From: Candidatus Methylomirabilota bacterium
Lineage (GTDB): Bacteria > Methylomirabilota > Methylomirabilia > Rokubacteriales > CSP1-6
Length of the DNA stretch: 24,068 bases
NCBI GenBank assembly: GCA_046726415.1
Contig: JBKPAK010000002.1
Span: forward strand, 1 to 24,068
Direction of reading: 5' to 3'
Below are positions 3,163 through 18,146 of this stretch, in pieces. The notes under the pieces are model-generated. The model saw only the letters and a program-made list of their open reading frames with translations. It was not told the DNA's origin and searched no databases. How positions within the stretch are numbered: position 1 is the stretch's first letter; every line of letters begins with the position of its first letter. The translations under genes and the position numbers were made by a program.

Positions 3163-3526
3163 ATGCCTGACTACATCCCCAGCCCCAGACAGTGGGTGCG
3201 CGATCAGGTCGATTTGTACGAGAAGAGCGGGGGCACCGAGGGCACCACGCTTCGCGATACGGGCCTGCCGGTCATCATCGTCACCCACACCGGCAACAAG
3301 ACGGGGCGATTCGCTGATGCGCGTCCAGGACGGCGCTCGCTACGTGCTCGTGGGCTCGATGGGAGGAGCGCCAACGAACCCGGTCTGGGTTCACAACCTC
3401 CGCGCCAACCAGGCGGTGGAGATCCGCGACCTCGCCGCGGTGCAGAGCATGCGGGTCCGCGAGGTTGAAGACGAGGCCGAGCGCGCGCGGCTCTGGGCGC
3501 TGGCCGTGGCGGCGTTTCCACCGTAG
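3163..3526 (+). pseudogene. Deazaflavin (F420)-dependent nitroreductase family (Ddn-like), frameshifted and 3'-truncated
   Basis: GAGGAG RBS then MPDYIPSPRQWVRDQVDLYEKSGG...HTGNKTG; frame change near 3305-3315 to LMRVQDGARYVLVGSMGGAPTNPVWVHNLRAN; stops at AFPP* before the usual C-terminal RxIPV segment. Confidence 0.85.
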
Positions 3527-11654: not shown

Positions 11655-11760
11655 CGTCCAGGCAGGGGCAGGCCCTGAACGCGAGCGATGAAGTGTTCCG
11701 CATTGCCGGAGGGGAGCGGTAGCCCTGCTGGCGGAGCAGAGCATGGATGAGCGAGATGGT
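11655..11760 (-). pseudogene. IS110-family transposase internal fragment
   Basis: ISLIHALLRQQGYR / PSGNAEHFIARVQGLPLPGR aligns by eye with IALSRALLRRHGYVVPTGGAEAFARRVMTLGVPGR in the 14871-15914 transposase. Confidence 0.75.
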
Positions 11761-11877
11761 GAACATTGCAGCCGGTTCGCCGCAAATCTGCGGCGGATAG
11801 GTGTTAGGTGGTTAGAACCAAGTTGTGATCCGCTGGACACCAATACCAGACTGCTCGCTTCCCAGGGAGATCGAGTG

Positions 11878-13419
11878 ATGCGAAACGACGTCTTGATCAT
11901 CGGCGCTGGCCCTTCCGGGCTGTTCGCCGCCGCCGAACTCGCCCGCCACGGCGTGGAAGCGCGGCTCATCGAGCGGGAGGTGCGGCCGCACCGCGAGGCA
12001 CGCGCCACGGCGATCCAGCCCGGCACGCTCGAAATCCTGGATTCCGTCGGCCTGTTGCCGCCGTTCCTCGATGCCGCCGAGCGCGTCCGGTGTGCCCGCC
12101 TGTACGGCCCGGATATGGCCGAGCTTGGCGCGATGAGCCACGATGGCATCGACTGCCGCCACAAATTCCAGTGCAGCCTGCCGCAATACAAGACTCAGCG
12201 GATCCTCGAGGCGCATCTCGCGTCGCTCGGCGGGGTGGTCGAGCGCGGGGTCACGGCGACCAAGGTGGAGGTGGAGGCAGACGAGGTCCTCGTCGAGTTC
12301 GTCCACGCGGACGGCGCGGCGGAGACGGTCCGTCCGAGCGTCGTCATCGGGGCGGGCGGGGCGCACAGCGTCACGCGCCATTCGATGAACAAGCCGTTCG
12401 CGGGCGCCACCTACCGAGGGCATTTCCTCGTCGCCGACATCGGGATGGCGGGGCCGTTCCCGCGCGACGAGGCCGGCGTGATCTGCGGTCCCGATGGCCT
12501 GCTGCTGCTCGCGCCGCTCCCGGGCGGGCGCTGGATCAGTTTCCAGGACCTGGAAGAGGAGGTGGAGACCGTCTCTGCCGAAGACGTCATCGCCCGGGTT
12601 CAGGTACGGCTCGGTGGGAAGTATCGCCCCACCGACGTCGCCTGGTTCACGCCGTTTCGGATGCACCGGCGGATCGTCTCGCGCCTGGCGGACGGCCGGC
12701 GTTTTCTGATCGGCGACGCCGCTCACCTGTCGAGCCCGTTCGGCGGCGAGGGGCTCAACTCGGGCCTGCATGACGGCTACGACCTCGCGTGGAAGCTCGC
12801 CCTCGTCCTGCGCGGCCACGCGCGTCGGTCGCTCCTCGACGGGTATGCGGCGGAGCGCCTGATCGCGGACCGCCACGTTCTCGACGTTTCCGACCAGGTG
12901 CACACGTCGATCATCGACGTGGCGGACGCCGTCCGGCAGGGCCGCGAGGTGCATCCCGCGGTCGTGGACCCGATCGCGGCCGCGCTGCAGCGCAACGCGC
13001 GCGCCATGATCGACGTCGACTACGCGGGAAGCCCGCTCATCGCCGACTACGAGAGAACCGGGGCGGGCATCGAGGGGCCGCATCCCGGGCAGCGCTACCC
13101 GGACCGGGCACAGCTCGGGGGAACGTCACACCACGTGCTCGTGTTTGGACCCGTCACAGACGCCGCGTCGCTCGCGCGGCTGGACCGACGCTGGTCCAAG
13201 CTCGTGCAGATCTCTCACGATCCCAGTGTCGATCCCGCCCGCGCCGGCGTGCCGGCAGGCGGCGTGATCATGGTCCGCCCCGATGGCCACATCGGCTTTC
13301 GATACCCGTCCGCCCACGCGGGGGCGCTCACGGCGCTCGACCACCACCTCTTTTCGTATCTGATTCCGGACCCAGCCGTAGGTCCACTCGAAGAGGCGAT
13401 AGCGCATAGCAATGGATGA
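11878..13419 (+). CDS. FAD-dependent monooxygenase (group A aromatic hydroxylase, PheA/TfdB-like)
   Basis: GAGPSG Rossmann motif, GDAAHLSSPFGGEGLNSG, LAWKL, C-terminal VRPDGHIG; GGGAG RBS. Confidence 0.92.
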   Translation: MRNDVLIIGAGPSGLFAAAELARHGVEARLIEREVRPHREARATAIQPGTLEILDSVGLLPPFLDAAERVRCARLYGPDMAELGAMSHDGIDCRHKFQCSLPQYKTQRILEAHLASLGGVVERGVTATKVEVEADEVLVEFVHADGAAETVRPSVVIGAGGAHSVTRHSMNKPFAGATYRGHFLVADIGMAGPFPRDEAGVICGPDGLLLLAPLPGGRWISFQDLEEEVETVSAEDVIARVQVRLGGKYRPTDVAWFTPFRMHRRIVSRLADGRRFLIGDAAHLSSPFGGEGLNSGLHDGYDLAWKLALVLRGHARRSLLDGYAAERLIADRHVLDVSDQVHTSIIDVADAVRQGREVHPAVVDPIAAALQRNARAMIDVDYAGSPLIADYERTGAGIEGPHPGQRYPDRAQLGGTSHHVLVFGPVTDAASLARLDRRWSKLVQISHDPSVDPARAGVPAGGVIMVRPDGHIGFRYPSAHAGALTALDHHLFSYLIPDPAVGPLEEAIAHSNG

Positions 13420-13457
13420 TTCCCTCACGTCCCGTCAACTCCCGGAGACTTCGGCCA

Positions 13458-14227
13458 ATGCTTGACCGCGCCGGTCGATTCAGCCTGCAGGGCAAAAGAG
13501 CTCTGGTCACAGGCGCCTCACGGGGCATCGGCGCGGAGATCGCGACCGTGTTCGCCGACGCCGGAGCCGATGTCGCCATCGTGGGCAGAGATGCAGAGGT
13601 CCTCGACGCGACGAGGCAAGCCATCGCCGGCAAGGGTCGCCGGTGCGTCGCGATTCAGACGGACCTACGGACAGTCGAGGGCCCGCGCACCGCCGGCACC
13701 CGGGCCATCGAGCTCCTAGGAGCGGTGGACATCCTCGTGAACAACGCGGGCGTTTTTCATCGCGAGAGTCTGCTGGAGACCACGGTCGAACAGTGGGAGT
13801 AGACTCAGGCCGTCAATCTCCGGGCTCCATTCTTATGGGGGCAGCTCGTCGCGCCTGGCATGATGGCACAGCGGCGTGGCAAGATCGTCAATGTCTCGTC
13901 CCTGGCTGCCCAGGTTGGATGCGAGGGACATGCCGCCTACAGCTCCGCCAAGGGCGGGCTCAACATGTTGACGCGCGTCATGGCTGCCGAATGGGGGCCA
14001 TTCAACATCCAGACGAACTCCGTTGCGCCGACCGTCGTCCTCACCGACATGGGGAAGAAGGTCTGGGTGCCGAGGAGAAGAGCGCGCCCGTGAACGCGCG
14101 CATTCCACTTCATCGATTCGGGACGCCGCTGGAGATTGCAGACTTAGCTCTTTTCCTGGCATCGCCGGCTTCGGACTTCATCTGCGGCCAGGTCGTCTTC
14201 ATCGACGGCGGCTACAGCGCAGTATAG
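13458..14227 (+). pseudogene. SDR oxidoreductase (sugar/polyol dehydrogenase-like) with in-frame stop and frameshift
   Basis: TGASRGIG, NNAG, YSSAK, VAPTVVLTDMG, IDGGY; TAG at 13800-13802 and a frame change near 14070. Confidence 0.85.
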
Positions 14228-14369
14228 AAGTGCGGCAGGCATCGAGGTTCACGAATGTGAGACCGGGAGGAAGGCGCTTCGCCCCTCCCGCGGGCCCCCA
14301 GGGATGGTCACTGTGAGAGAAGCAGTCCTCGCAACTGAGCCTCGCCGCGAATACACGACCTATCTGTTC

Positions 14370-14416
14370 AGGCGCCCGAAGCTACATCCGAGCGACCGCC
14401 TCTTCTGGATTTGCCT
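14370..14416 (+). pseudogene. rve-type transposase fragment, left part, interrupted by the IS1111-like element
   Basis: RRPKLHPSDRLFWIC(L) joins in frame with 16022 onward. Confidence 0.75.
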
Positions 14417-14435
14417 TCTATGAAGCGATGGCCAG

Positions 14436-14441
14436 TGTCAA
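14436..14441 (-). promoter_or_regulatory. Outward-facing -35 hexamer TTGACA at the IS right end (candidate circle-junction promoter)
   Basis: Perfect TTGACA just inside the IR; IS110/IS1111 elements form a promoter across the circle junction. The -10 is not convincing. Confidence 0.55.
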
Positions 14442-14669
14442 GCACCAGCGCTCGGGTCAGGCGCTCCTTTGATCCTCTGCTTGTCCGGGCTTCTCTCCTC
14501 TTGGACGAATGAACGACGGCTGACCTCTCGGGGCCGTCAGTCTTCGCATCCACAATGCCGGGGCTGCCCCTCGCCCCTGGCTCACCTCGCCGGGCCCTCG
14601 GCCCCGGAACACGTCTCCGTTCTCATCCACACACCACCATAGGTTTACGGTCGACCGGGCGCTGCTCGC

Positions 14670-14830
14670 GAGGTTCATCAGCCTTCTATTCGCGCTCCGG
14701 GTGGCGTCGCGTCCCTTCCGCGCGCCGGCGCCTGAGAGGATTTCGGGGAGGGAGGGCGCCCTCTATCCGGCGGCTGTCCCGAGCGCAGCCAAGGCGAATC
14801 CTCGCGCTCACTCCCTCATCGAACCTGCAC
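14670..14830 (-). ncRNA. Predicted bridge/seek RNA of the IS1111-like element
   Basis: Four guide-like segments match the target and donor junction sequences, with enclosing stems; transcript ends unknown. Confidence 0.8.
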
Positions 14831-14870
14831 GAGCCTCCCTGTCGTCCCGTCATGCCGTGGCCCCCGTTCG

Positions 14871-15914
14871 CTACGCGGGCAGCGAGATGGGCGTAGAGGA
14901 TGCCGCCGCCGTCCAGCGCTGGGGCTCGTACGAGGCATCGTCCCGCAGCATCGCCCACAGAATGCCGGCCAGCCGGCGCGCCAACGCGACTGCGGCCACG
15001 GTCCGGCCCCGACGCGCTGCGATGCGCAGGGCCCAGGTGCGTAAGCCCACCGCCCGCGGATCGCGCAGCCGCATAATCGACAGGGCTGCCTGGATCAGCA
15101 GCCACCGCATCCGGGTGTTGCCTGTCTTGGTGATGCGCCCCCGCCGCTGCCCCTCCCCCGTGCTCCACTCCCCCGGCACCAATCCCAGGTACGCCTCCAC
15201 CTGGTGCGCCCGTCGAAACCGCGCCGCCTTGTCGAGGGTCGCCACGAACGCGGCCGCCGTGACCGGCCCGATGCTGGGCGCCGTCCGCAACCGTCGCACC
15301 CGCGGATCCCGTTCACTGATGTGTTCGATCTCCCCCTCGCAGTACGCGAGCTGGGCGTTGACCGTGCGCATCAGCGCCAGCAAGGGGCCCACCTCCGAGA
15401 GCAACCGCCCGGGCACCCCCAGGGTCATCACCCGCCGGGCGAATGCCTCAGCCCCGCCGGTGGGCACCACGTAGCCATGCCGCCGCAACAGCGCGCGGCT
15501 CAACGCGATGCTCCGCGTCCGCACCAGCGCGTCCCGGACCGCCAGCTGCGCCCGGACTTGTCGCTAGCCGTCGGAGAGTCGATGAGCCGGCCGATAGGCG
15601 CCGAGCACGTTGGCCTCGGTTAGCGCGCGCGCATCGCGCCGATCCGTCTTCACCTTCCGCGTGCGGGTGGCGTACATCGGAGCGAAGTTTGGGTCCGCCA
15701 CGATCACCTCGTGCCCCAGGCCCTCCAGGCAGCGAGCCACCCACTCGCTCTCCGTCGACGCCTCCAATAAGATGCGCGCCCGGGGGCGCGGACCCAACAC
15801 CTCCGCGAACCGCTCCGCCAGGGTCCGCACCCGGCGTTCGATCAGCTCACCGTCCTCCGTCAGGATGCAGATCTGCGTTTCCTTCTTGTGCACATCGATG
15901 CCAATATGGTCCAC
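14871..15914 (-). pseudogene. IS110-family DEDD recombinase/transposase with one in-frame TAG (15564-15566)
   Basis: GTG start with GGGGAGG RBS; GIDVHK, LLEAS, KTDRRDA, PSIGPVTA, YLGLVP.EWSTG, ITKTGN, VALARRL; the two listed ORFs are in the same frame. Confidence 0.9.
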
Positions 15915-16021
15915 GGCTGGCCTCCCCCTCTTCGCGGCTTCGACCGCGCATGCCCTTTGTGGGGACGACCCTACGCCACCCACGTTCCGAGCGGGTGGCC
16001 AGCCATCGCTTCATCCGATCT

Positions 16022-16230
16022 ATCCCGCTTGTGGGCAGAGTGGCGGCAGGCCCTCATCATCGTGACTCCAGACACCGTGCTTCGTTGGCACCGGGGCCGT
16101 TTTCGCGATTACTGGACCATGCTCTCACGGAGTCCCAAGGTTGGCCGCCCGTCGATCAACGCCGAGATCGTTGCTCTCGTCCGCAAGATGGTCGCCGCGA
16201 ATCCGCGATGGGGTGCGCCCCGAATCCATG
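16022..16230 (+). pseudogene. rve-type transposase fragment, right part
   Basis: SRLWAEWRQALIIVTPDTVLRWHR...GRPSINAEIVALVRKMVAANPRWGAPRIH(G); ends at the intron remnant. Confidence 0.85.
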
Positions 16231-16325
16231 GTAGGTCGAGGGCTGGCGCGGTACCTCATCGGGCCCGTCTCCAGCCCCCGCCACATCAAACGGCGCGAAC
16301 GGATTTCCCGTACGCCGCTTTCCGG
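16231..16325 (-). ncRNA. Group II intron 3' end (domains V-VI) remnant
   Basis: Minus strand AAGCGGCGTACGGGAAATCCGTTCGCGCCGTTT (DV with AGC triad and GAAA-type loop, 16288-16320), then GGGGCTGG...CCAGCCCTCGACCTAC (DVI with AC terminus). Confidence 0.85.
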
Positions 16326-16359
16326 CGACGCCGGCCAGGATGCGGTCCCCTGGGGGCCC

Positions 16360-17193
16360 CTACTCCTTCAGCCCCGAGAGTGCGATCCCGCGAACGAAGG
16401 CGCGCTGGAAGAACAGGAAGATGATCGCCGTCGGGATCATGCCGATGACGGCGATGGCCATGATCTCGTGGTAGGCGGCCGAGTCGATGCCCTCCATCTG
16501 GGCGAGCCCCAGAGGGAAGGTCTTGAGGGTGTCCCTCGAGGCCACGATGAGGGGCCACAGGAACTGGTCCCAGTTGTCGCGGAAGGTGAGGAGCGCCAGG
16601 GCGCCCAGGGCGGGCCGGCAGTTGGGCAGGATGATGCGCCAGAAGATGCCGCGCTCGCTGCAGCCGTCGAGCCGGGCCGCCTCGATGAGGGAGTCCGGCA
16701 GGTCCTTGATGTACTGGCGCATGAGGAAGATGCCGAAGGCGTCCACGGCGAGGGGAACAATGAGCCCCCCGTAGTTGTTCACGAGGCCCAGCCCGCGCAC
16801 CACGAGGAAGGTGGGCACCAGGACGATTTCTAGGGGCAGCATGAGGGTGCTCAGGATCATGCGGAAGGAGGCCTCCCGATAGGGGAAACGGAACTTGGCG
16901 AGGCCATACCCCGCCAGGCTGCAAAAGAGGAGGTTCCCCGCCATCACCGCGAGCGCGACCACTGCGCTGTTGAAGAAGTAGATGCCGAAGGCGCCGCGCG
17001 AGAGGGCGTCCGGGTAATTCGACCACTGTGGCTCCCGGGGAAGCCACCGGATGGGGAGCTCGAAGACCTCGCTGCTCGTCTTGAGGGAGGAGGAGAGCAT
17101 CCAGAAATAGGGCAGGAGCATCATCCCGATCCCGGCGAGCGTGAGGAGGGTCACCAGGCGCCCGCCCCAGAGGATCAACGCCTTCCTGTTCAC
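16360..17193 (-). CDS. Carbohydrate-type ABC transporter permease (MalG/UgpE-like)
   Basis: LIEAARLDG EAA motif, WDQFLWPLI, FQRAFVRGIALSGLK; GTG start overlaps the upstream TGA. Confidence 0.92.
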   Translation of the reverse strand: MNRKALILWGGRLVTLLTLAGIGMMLLPYFWMLSSSLKTSSEVFELPIRWLPREPQWSNYPDALSRGAFGIYFFNSAVVALAVMAGNLLFCSLAGYGLAKFRFPYREASFRMILSTLMLPLEIVLVPTFLVVRGLGLVNNYGGLIVPLAVDAFGIFLMRQYIKDLPDSLIEAARLDGCSERGIFWRIILPNCRPALGALALLTFRDNWDQFLWPLIVASRDTLKTFPLGLAQMEGIDSAAYHEIMAIAVIGMIPTAIIFLFFQRAFVRGIALSGLKE

Positions 17194-18146
17194 TCCACAC
17201 CCCTCCGGCGGAGCAACCGCAGCTGGATCAAGGTCAGGGCGAAGGCAAAGGCGAAAAGCACCATCGAGGCGGCGGCGGCCTCCCCCATCCGGTGGTAGGC
17301 GAACGCCGTGTCGTAGATGAAGTAGGGGAGCACTCTGGTGGTCCCGTTGGGGCCGCCCTCCGTCATCACCAGGGGGTTGAGGAAGACCTTCATGGCGGAG
17401 AGCAGCGACATGATCATGACGAAGAGGATGGTGGGCATGAGGAGCGGGATGGTGACGTGGATGAAGCTCTTCCACGGCCCGGCTCCGTCCACGGTCGCAG
17501 CCTCGTGATACTCCTTCGGGATGGATTGCAGCCCCGCCAGGTAGATGACGCCGAAGAGCGGGATGCCCCGCCAGATGCCGATGAGGATGAGGGCGGGTAG
17601 GGCCGTCTCCTCGGTGGCGAGCCAGTTGGTGCGCCCGACCCCTACGGAGCCGAGGAGGGTGTTCACCACGCCGAGGGGGTTGTACATGAACTTCCACACC
17701 AGGGCGACCACGATCTGGGACATGGCAATGGGGAAGAAGTAAGCCAGGCGGATCAGCGACCGCCCCTTCATCTGGCGGTTGAGGAGCAGGGCCAGTCCCA
17801 TCGCGAGGAACCACTCTGGGATCGAGACCCCGAACATGTACTTAACCGAGACCCAGAACGACTGGTGGAAGAGGGGGTTCCCCCAGACGGCCCGGTAGTT
17901 CTCCAGCCCGTGGAAGACCGGCGGGCTCATGAGGTCGTACTGGTAAAAGCTCAGCCGGAACGCCTCGAACATGGGGTAGAACTTGAAGGTGATCAGGTGC
18001 AGGAGCGCCGGCAGCACGAACAAGAAGCCCGCCCAGCAGAGGCGGGTCTGGAGGGAAAGCTTCCTCCAGCCCGCCGCCTGCAGGAGCGATTCCAGGAACC
18101 TCGGCCAGGGCTGAGCCCGGGCGGGCGCAGCCTGCTCTTCCGCCAT
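17190..18146 (-). CDS. Carbohydrate-type ABC transporter permease (MalF/UgpA-like)
   Basis: GLENY, YLAGLQSIPKEYHEAATVDGA, MTEGGP. Confidence 0.92.
   Translation of the reverse strand: MAEEQAAPARAQPWPRFLESLLQAAGWRKLSLQTRLCWAGFLFVLPALLHLITFKFYPMFEAFRLSFYQYDLMSPPVFHGLENYRAVWGNPLFHQSFWVSVKYMFGVSIPEWFLAMGLALLLNRQMKGRSLIRLAYFFPIAMSQIVVALVWKFMYNPLGVVNTLLGSVGVGRTNWLATEETALPALILIGIWRGIPLFGVIYLAGLQSIPKEYHEAATVDGAGPWKSFIHVTIPLLMPTILFVMIMSLLSAMKVFLNPLVMTEGGPNGTTRVLPYFIYDTAFAYHRMGEAAAASMVLFAFAFALTLIQLRLLRRRGVE

Follow-up and report, generated by a model that had tools for sequence, protein, structure and literature searches.

A probable guide RNA gene 3′ of the transposase in an IS1111-type insertion sequence of a Methylomirabilota bacterium

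Introduction

Guide RNAs termed seekRNAs have been demonstrated at the bench for four IS1111-type members of the IS110 family of insertion sequences, ISEc11, ISPa11, ISKpn4 and ISPst6 (Siddiquee et al. 2024, PMC11187229). According to the same report, the non-coding region of IS1111 elements lies downstream of the transposase gene, and the stretch of RNA matching the top strand of the target lies 5′ of the stretch matching the bottom strand, an order that is reversed in IS110-type elements. The marks given for the IS1111 group are subterminal inverted repeats of 7–17 base pairs (bp), a long downstream and a short upstream non-coding region (PMC11187229; PMC11208160), and bridge RNAs have been predicted in the right end of 93.0% of the catalogued IS1111 elements (PMC11208160). 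In IS621, once strands have been exchanged, the RNA is described as pairing with the partner DNA through 'handshake guides' (Hiraizumi et al. 2024, PMC11208158). Here we describe a 24,068-nucleotide (nt) stretch of DNA from a Candidatus Methylomirabilota bacterium (contig JBKPAK010000002.1, positions 1 to 24,068; hereafter the window), which carries a 1603-bp IS110-family element of the IS1111 type on its minus strand. The region 3′ of the transposase gene of this element very probably encodes a guide RNA (a bridge RNA, or long seekRNA).

Results

Guide segments match the insertion site

On the plus strand, the locus reads in the order flank 14407–14414 (GGATTTGC), CT 14415–14416, element 14417–16019, CT 16020–16021 and flank from 16022 (ATCCCGC...). 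On the minus strand, the non-coding region contains the four guide-like segments that a first-pass annotation of the window, made from the letters alone, had proposed, at the positions and with the matches that it had given them (Table 1). Within the part that covaries among relatives (see below), segment 2 matches at 6/6 positions. On the transposase strand the core reads AG, and it is this strand that the 5′ guide complements, the 3′ guide complementing the other.

As a measure of chance, the 454-nt downstream region was shuffled 20000 times by mononucleotide. A match of the grade of segment 1 appeared in 77 shuffles and one of the grade of segment 2 in 2744, and both grades (9/10 and 8/9), in order and 10–45 nt apart, appeared in 1/20000, so the probability that the target matches are due to chance is low. 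The preferred target implied by the guides would be about GATTCGC-CT-ATCC. The corresponding 13-mer has no exact site in the genome, five sites at one mismatch and 134 at two.

Target guides covary with flanks among relatives

A scan of one genome per prokaryote species gave 277 stretches encoding relatives, of which 79 loci were kept, mostly from assemblies of Rokubacteria, Gemmatimonadota, Myxococcota, Acidobacteriota and Chloroflexota. The ends of these elements were anchored on the subterminal repeat with at most one substitution (left, core, six bases and TGAAG; right, TTCA, four bases and core). This rule leaves out the window's own copy, and the covariation test is thus independent of it. 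Anchoring with up to two substitutions mis-placed L003, L019, L086, L038, L070 and L032 and was not used for the counted tests.

Among the elements with both ends there were 47 distinct target classes, and the guides followed them. Segment 1 matched the reverse complement of the right flank (8 bases plus core) at 6.22/10 positions in cognate pairs and at 4.01 in permuted pairs (0/20000 permutations, n=64), and the result was the same when only unique guides were counted (6.30/10 against 4.00, 0/20000, n=40). Segment 2 matched the left flank (4 bases plus core) at 5.30/6 positions against 3.62 upon permutation (0/20000, n=60). Counted element by element, segment 1 reached at least 7/9 in 48/64 elements compared with 556/4032 non-cognate pairs, and segment 2 at least 5/6 in 51/60 elements compared with 715/3540 non-cognate pairs. 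When segment 1 was set against the wrong flank or the wrong strand, the score was attained in 1036, 1951 and 19429 of 20000 permutations.

The profile of segment 1 along the target covers flank positions −7 to −1 (0.62–0.85) and the core (0.82, 0.82), and that of segment 2 covers positions −4 to −1 (0.72–0.96), in part −5 (0.54), and the core (0.91, 0.96). No enrichment was seen when segment 2 was compared with 7–8 flank bases, because the extracted loop strand is only 11 nt long and the register cannot fit; with 4–6 bases plus core the signal was clear.

The probable guide RNA has a conserved, covarying structure

The RNA lies on the transposase strand and starts about 35 nt past the stop codon. 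A basal stem, 14834–14821 with 14675–14664, encloses a target-binding arm and a donor-binding arm, and the four segments sit in two internal loops of this conserved, covarying structure. The first-pass annotation had placed the RNA at 14670–14830; the location was right, and the extent slightly too short, as the basal stem closes at about 14834–14664. The two stems and the hairpin that it had drawn around the target guides are present in the fold and show compensatory changes in relatives, and the segments themselves, whose burial in stems would have spoken against guides, are not folded into stems.

Aligned with each other, the four paralogs in the same genome that keep the 3′ region show a constant scaffold and variable loop strands, and their MAFFT alignment already contains 8 compensated pairs (for example, GAGGGAG/CTCCCTC in one stem against GGGTGGG/CCCACCC). 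A covariance model, R1, built from these four paralogs gave 78 hits in 77/83 sources, all of them on the transposase strand and starting shortly 3′ of the gene. Of the six sources that gave no R1 hit, at least two (L045 and L075) end at a contig edge directly after the gene. In the alignment fitted to the model, 89.5% of cells form standard pairs, compared with 34–47% when partners are slid by 1–3 columns; changes on both sides occur in 30/41 pairs, and the covariation score was reached by 0/500 shuffles. The target-loop stems (helices 5 and 6) are paired in 92.1% and 100% of cells, with both-sided changes in 9/11 pairs. Two conserved U-G pairs, present in 68 and 71 of 76 rows, argue for an RNA of the transposase strand.

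The element inserts at CT and has IS1111-type ends

Two paralogous sites elsewhere in the genome carry no insertion and read ...GGGGTTTGC-CT-ATCGCGGGTGTGGGCAG and ...GGGTTTTC-CT-ATCCCGGGTGTGGGCAG, from which it follows that the empty site carries a single CT. In agreement, 14414 is joined directly to 16020 in contigs from soil metagenomes, which lack the 1605 bases in between and have two letters that fit either side; three such contigs come from run X1, two from X2 and one from X3. The sides of these joints are short (18–40 letters), and some of the joining contigs may therefore derive from paralogous genes. Past 14416, one loose end in X3 has exactly the letters ATCCCGCTTG. The inserted element is bordered on each side by a single CT (AG on the minus strand); with one CT in the empty sites and in the contigs and a CT on both sides when occupied, insertion took place without target duplication. 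The empty site rebuilt in the first-pass annotation was thus correct.

The element has the hallmarks of the IS1111 group, namely subterminal repeats, a long downstream non-coding region and the GL-P----TG motif in the protein. The subterminal inverted repeats are perfect over 13 bp, and their core motif, TGAAGCGGC, is common to most relatives. The non-coding regions measure 454 nt downstream (14870–14417) and 105 nt upstream (16019–15915) of the transposase gene. The right subterminal repeat ends 242 nt past the RNA in the window copy, and mostly 65–105 nt past it in relatives. The 229-base stretch 14436–14664 (minus strand) has no match elsewhere in the genome or in the fetched loci of relatives, and some metagenome contigs skip 129–232 bases within it.

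Across the joined ends, TTGACA is followed by a 17-nt spacer and GAAGAT, a sigma-70-like arrangement that would make a promoter solely in the excised circle. TTGAC lies at most 45 nt from the right end in 52/58 relatives, at an identical distance in 44 of them. A promoter scan of the linear element returned no sites. One terminator-like site in the linear element, 15790–15775, falls within the transposase gene, and no T-run terminator was seen at the end of the guide RNA.

Table 1. Coordinates of the features described in the window, with the basis of each assignment
Feature	Position	Strand	Basis or remark
Segment 1, left target guide equivalent, GGAUUCGCCU	14792..14801	-	9/10 to plus-strand flank GGATTTGC-CT, same sense
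Segment 2, right target guide equivalent, GCCGGAUAG	14763..14771	-	8/9 to reverse complement of CT-ATCCCGC
Segment 3, putative left donor guide, AUCCUCUC	14734..14741	-	6/8 to ATCCGATC; weakest of the four
Segment 4, right donor guide equivalent, AUAGAAG	14683..14689	-	7/7 to reverse complement of CT-TCTAT
Bridge/seek RNA (very probable), about 171 nt	14664..14834	-	Fold, four-paralog consensus fold, covariance model, pair counts
Target-loop stems	14748..14817	-	GAGGGAG 14817-14811/CUCCCUC 14754-14748; GCGC 14807-14804/GCGC 14759-14756
Hairpin GGCUG...CAGCC between target guides	14772..14790	-	Helix 7, 90.6% of cells paired
Transposase gene	14871..15914	-	GTG start at 15914, 347 codons plus stop 14873-14871; translation, Pfam PF01548 and PF02371
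IS1111-type insertion sequence	14417..16019	-	Limits from empty paralogous sites and metagenome contigs; family end rule agrees
Left subterminal inverted repeat, ATGAAGCGATGGC	16002..16014	-	5 nt inside left end; inverted-repeat search
Right subterminal inverted repeat, GCCATCGCTTCAT	14420..14432	-	3 nt inside right end; inverted-repeat search
TTGACA	14436..14441	-	Candidate promoter element, in the excised circle only
Interrupted gene, left remnant	14368..14416, resumes 16020-16231	+	Paralog similarity; rve/HTH_32 transposase gene of another insertion sequence

The transposase gene is broken in the window and intact in metagenome contigs

When translated through its premature stop, the gene scores 44.9 bits with PF01548 (cut-off 29) and 78.4 bits with PF02371 (cut-off 21.3), and an intact paralog on C326 scores 264 bits with NCBIfam NF033542, 'IS110 family RNA-guided transposase' (cut-off 140). 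The translation contains the motifs GIDVHK, LEAST, ADPN, TDRRD and GLVPGEWSTG; catalytic residues were assigned by eye, and the acidic residues are invariant among three paralogs. Judged by its Pfam domains, the protein is an IS110-family DEDD transposase.

The stop, an in-frame TAG at 15566–15564 (codon 117), stands where the paralogs have CAG, CAA or CCG, and a 6-base tandem repeat is short of one unit beside 15511, leaving two codons fewer than in the paralogs. With the TAG and the lost codons, the copy as assembled cannot make a full-length transposase. In each of the soil-metagenome runs X1, X2 and X3, however, the sole contig at this place reads G at 15566 (CAG on the gene strand) and has six extra bases behind 15511; these contigs otherwise differ from the window at 1–2 letters, and none shows the TAG. 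Run X4 does not cover the region, so the check there comprises three of the four runs. The contigs indicate that an intact allele exists in soil, and the defects in the window are either private to the strain or assembly errors. One A at 14741 is absent from the contigs of all four runs, a hint that the window sequence has small errors or changes of its own. The best-matching runs may include the source sample, and therefore they do not independently confirm either reading. The proposal in the first-pass annotation that the element is a programmable RNA-guided recombinase ortholog would accordingly hold, on the sequences at hand, for the family and for the intact metagenome allele, and not demonstrably for the window copy.

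We give an even chance to the view that the guide RNA gene is genuine while this copy of the element is a dead relic, its RNA lying idle or being used with the transposase of a paralog. Besides the nonsense codon and the 6-base gap, this view draws on the fact that the genome holds only one copy of the element (the second-best DNA match, at 83%, covers part of the length) and that about 150 extra unique bases separate the RNA from the right end. Intact paralogous transposases with 72–74% identity are present on C27 and C326, and seekRNA is reported as not strictly tied to closely related transposases (PMC11187229); the window's RNA might thus be used in trans by these proteins, a step that we purely infer. 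The contigs of three of the four runs, on the other hand, allow that the defects are strain-specific or assembly errors, and the A lacking at 14741 in all four runs points to the same kind of small error or private change elsewhere in the window.

The putative donor-binding arm follows the right end closely and the left end weakly

Segment 4 runs in the sense of the right end plus core, ATAGA-AG. Among relatives it matched the last four bases of the right end at 3.83/4 positions against 3.30 upon permutation (0/20000, n=65), and the 4-mer of the guide was identical to that of the end in 58/65 elements, with TAGA, CAGA, GAGA, TACA, TAAA and CAAA as variants. Segment 3 matched the first six bases of the left end at 4.17/6 positions against 3.91 (4/20000 permutations, or 44/20000 with unique guides, n=60). 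The covariation of the guides with their flanks and ends in homologs, which the first-pass annotation had put forward as the check on its target-loop and donor-loop layout, is thus borne out for segments 1, 2 and 4, and support for segment 3 is weak.

This difference bears on how the ends of the element are recognized. It is improbable that only the target loop guides, with the ends recognized mainly by protein at the subterminal repeats and the matches in the second arm being partly structural or a by-product. Such a scheme would suit the weak covariation of segment 3 and the high conservation of the ends, which leaves few informative changes; it would also suit the partial pairing of segment 3 with segment 4 (helix 8, 75% paired) and the abundance, for ISEc11, ISPa11 and ISKpn4, of a short 82–96 nt form of the RNA with the target matches (PMC11187229). 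It does not explain why segment 4 follows every 4-mer variant of the right end, why segment 4 mirrors the core where that differs (AT in L088 and L048, GA in L056 and L061), or why the second arm is conserved as well as the first. We favour guidance by both loops.

In the first arm, the 5′ guide carries seven flank bases plus CT in sequence and so would pair with the other strand of that flank, and the 3′ guide is complementary to CT plus 4–5 bases of the opposite flank; each guide thus reads a different target strand, and their readings share the core. The second arm has on its 3′ side a strand with the sequence of the right end plus core, and on its 5′ side one that partly matches the left end. 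This anatomy, its conservation and the covariation of stems and of guides with flanks are seen in the sequences themselves; beyond them, the RNA would be transcribed and bound by the transposase, which would catalyse the recombination. If the element works as IS621 and ISEc11 do, the RNA-bound transposase would pair the circle junction, ...ATCCGAT-CT-TCTAT..., with the target, GGATT(C/T)GC-CT-ATCC, and strands would be exchanged at CT, which would leave no target duplication.

Short extensions 3′ of segments 2 and 4 also match the partner DNA, as do the 'handshake guides' of IS621. Beyond the core, segment 2 of the relatives tracks the start of the left end (0.89, 0.83, 0.52 and 0.76, against 0.31–0.51 in non-cognate pairs); in the window the corresponding position is 14762–14760. 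Segment 4 tracks the right end and core, and the tracking extends more weakly into the flank, whose first two bases score 0.69 and 0.55, compared with 0.49 and 0.33. The GC at 14682–14681, directly after segment 4 in the window, matches the first two flank bases and looks handshake-like.

The core, read on the transposase strand, is GA in L056, L061, L054, L089 and L076 and AT in L088 and L048, in place of AG. In L088 the change is present in segments 1 and 4 while segment 2 still has AG, showing that the four guides are not always updated together.

Points that weigh against a guide RNA

Several observations weigh against the assignment of a guide RNA. The fold of the single sequence is no stabler than that of shuffles (z = −0.10; 88/200 shuffles fold as well), and with such an unremarkable energy the structure rests on covariation; the alignment used for the pair counts, A3, was itself fitted to the model, which favours the model's pairs. 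Of the 24 runs found with the stretch none is on record as RNA. In one of the controls, in which segment 2 was set against its flank in reverse complement, only 37/20000 permutations attained the score, a signal that we attribute, short of proof, to partly palindromic, CTAG-like targets. In 16/64 relatives segment 1 reached 6/9 or less; some of these low scorers (L035, L048 and L031) reflect fixed-length extraction and register or indel artefacts, and others (L014 and L022) have altered right ends. The first guide of the C326 paralog (L004), AAATGTTC-CT, agrees by eye with its present flank, TAAAATGC-CT, at 4/8 positions; this copy may lie in an off-target site or beside a small deletion. In segment 3 the second core base is matched in only 0.33 of unique guides and the excess per position is small. 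Finally, the window copy has the nonsense codon and the 6-base loss described above.

A terminator, a messenger RNA stability element or a protein-bound DNA site, with flank matches arising by chance, would be compatible with the fold energy, with a search of 13800–16600 on both strands against Rfam 15 that gave no matches at E up to 1, and with the lack of RNA among the runs, yet such a structure is extremely improbable and close to refuted already, given the guide-flank covariation in 40–46 unique guides and 47 target classes (0/20000 permutations), the recurrence of the window's two target matches in only 1/20000 shuffles, the conserved U-G pairs that point to RNA, and an RNA end that has no T-run terminator.

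Paralogs in the same genome and the interrupted gene

The paralogous transposases in the genome share 55–74% protein identity; those on C27 and C326 are intact, that on C79 is frameshifted, that on C232 truncated and that on C303 decayed. Close relatives of the C326 element (L018, L016 and L020) have guides that agree with the sites they occupy, ...ATGT(T/C)GC-CT. The guide-RNA structure was found in four more places in the genome, at 101–132 bits: C260:10009-10174(-), C230:20107-20272(+), C253:321-485(+) and C255:6314-6484(-). The 1500 bases upstream of the C230 and C255 copies lack transposase homology, and these two look like 5′-truncated remnants or orphan RNA genes. For C260, at a contig edge, and C253, near a contig start, only 172 and 320 bases are available upstream, and no transposase homology was seen in them. 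The first guide still fits the flank where a right end was found (8/9 for C260 and 6/9 for C230). In one relative, L044, identical guide-RNA regions at 2572-2739 and 3339-3506 lie 767 bases apart on one strand, which may be a tandem or nested arrangement.

The element occupies the N-terminal coding part of an rve/HTH_32 transposase gene. Pfam rve_3 and HTH_32 were found on an intact paralog of this gene and HTH_32 on its right part in the window; it scores below the IS481 and IS3 cut-offs. The interrupted gene is itself decayed: similarity to its intact paralogs (C314, C164, C270, C309 and C215) stops at about 16231, and the gene loses its frame after ...WGAPRIHG. The C79 subfamily inserts 12 bp upstream in paralogous rve-type genes, with guides altered to match. 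By translation, the neighbours look ordinary: a long FAD-type oxidoreductase-like open reading frame, a broken, two-frame short-chain dehydrogenase-like one and two membrane permease-like ones (positions 11743-13419 (+), 13416-14227 (+) and 16360-18146 (-)); none appears related to the element.

Discussion

RNA-guided recombinases of the IS110/IS1111 kind are being developed as tools for DNA insertion without double-strand breaks, and annotated natural orthologs are thus of practical use. The present family adds about 77 related elements from soil phyla that are poorly represented among the elements studied. Their natural targets fall into at least 47 classes, and their guides follow a clear code of 7 + 2 bases for one side and 4–5 + 2 for the other. 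For annotation, the locus illustrates that such RNAs can be read directly from the sequence, and that they still escape Rfam 15. The biology is ordinary: one insertion sequence inside another.

A wider reading, which we put forward tentatively and consider rather doubtful, is that the clade consists of diversified IS1111-type guide systems, with a handshake-like extension of up to four bases, partly mirrored switches of the core (AG to GA or AT), and paralog guides tracking a single prey gene. The tracking of the N-terminal coding region of the rve-type gene by these guides suggests that one insertion sequence has specialized in disrupting another.

Among known systems, the closest are the bench-tested ISEc11, ISPa11, ISKpn4 and ISPst6. 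As reported for them (PMC11187229), the element combines subterminal inverted repeats with a long downstream non-coding region and a transposase of about 340 amino acids with the GL-P----S/TG motif; as reported for IS1111 seekRNAs, two stretches of its RNA read opposite target strands and overlap at the insertion point, the match to the top strand lies 5′, and the target is not duplicated. The RNA conserved here has two arms and measures about 171 nt, which places it with their 'long' form and not with the abundant form of 82–96 nt (PMC11187229). Unlike those four, the element here is predicted from sequence, and it comes from uncultured soil lineages, with its nearest relatives in Rokubacteria, Gemmatimonadota and Myxococcota.

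With IS621, as described by Durrant et al. 2024 (PMC11208160), the RNA shares a target and a donor loop, both with left and right guides in which the core is included, as well as a CT core, a left target of seven bases plus core and a short right target of 4–5 bases. It also shares extensions that match partner DNA, like the handshake guides (PMC11208158), and, as far as the joined ends of the element suggest, a promoter only across them. Unlike in the published IS621, the RNA lies 3′ of the gene and not 5′, the CT of the core falls on the other strand when the transposase strand is taken as reference (from the viewpoint of the RNA, the published IS1111/IS110 reversal), the subterminal repeats are long, and both arms stand on a common basal stem. 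The handshake-like match after the right target guide covers 2–4 bases in the relatives, compared with two handshake-guide positions, 81–82, in IS621 (PMC11208158).

Targeting of another insertion sequence's transposase gene has a described parallel in ISEc21, an IS110-type element found in a conserved codon region of IS3-family transposase genes, for which a relative with altered guide bases in a matching altered site was likewise reported (PMC11187229), as in the C79 subfamily here. ISEc21, as described there, differs from the present element in having its RNA upstream and no long subterminal repeats, and the target gene here, of the rve/HTH_32 kind and below the IS481 and IS3 cut-offs, differs from its IS3-family target. 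As judged from its sequence, the element fits the published description of IS1111 in every feature tested, except for the weakly supported left donor guide. The layout has already been published for IS1111 seekRNAs and bridge RNAs, and the element adds another such system.

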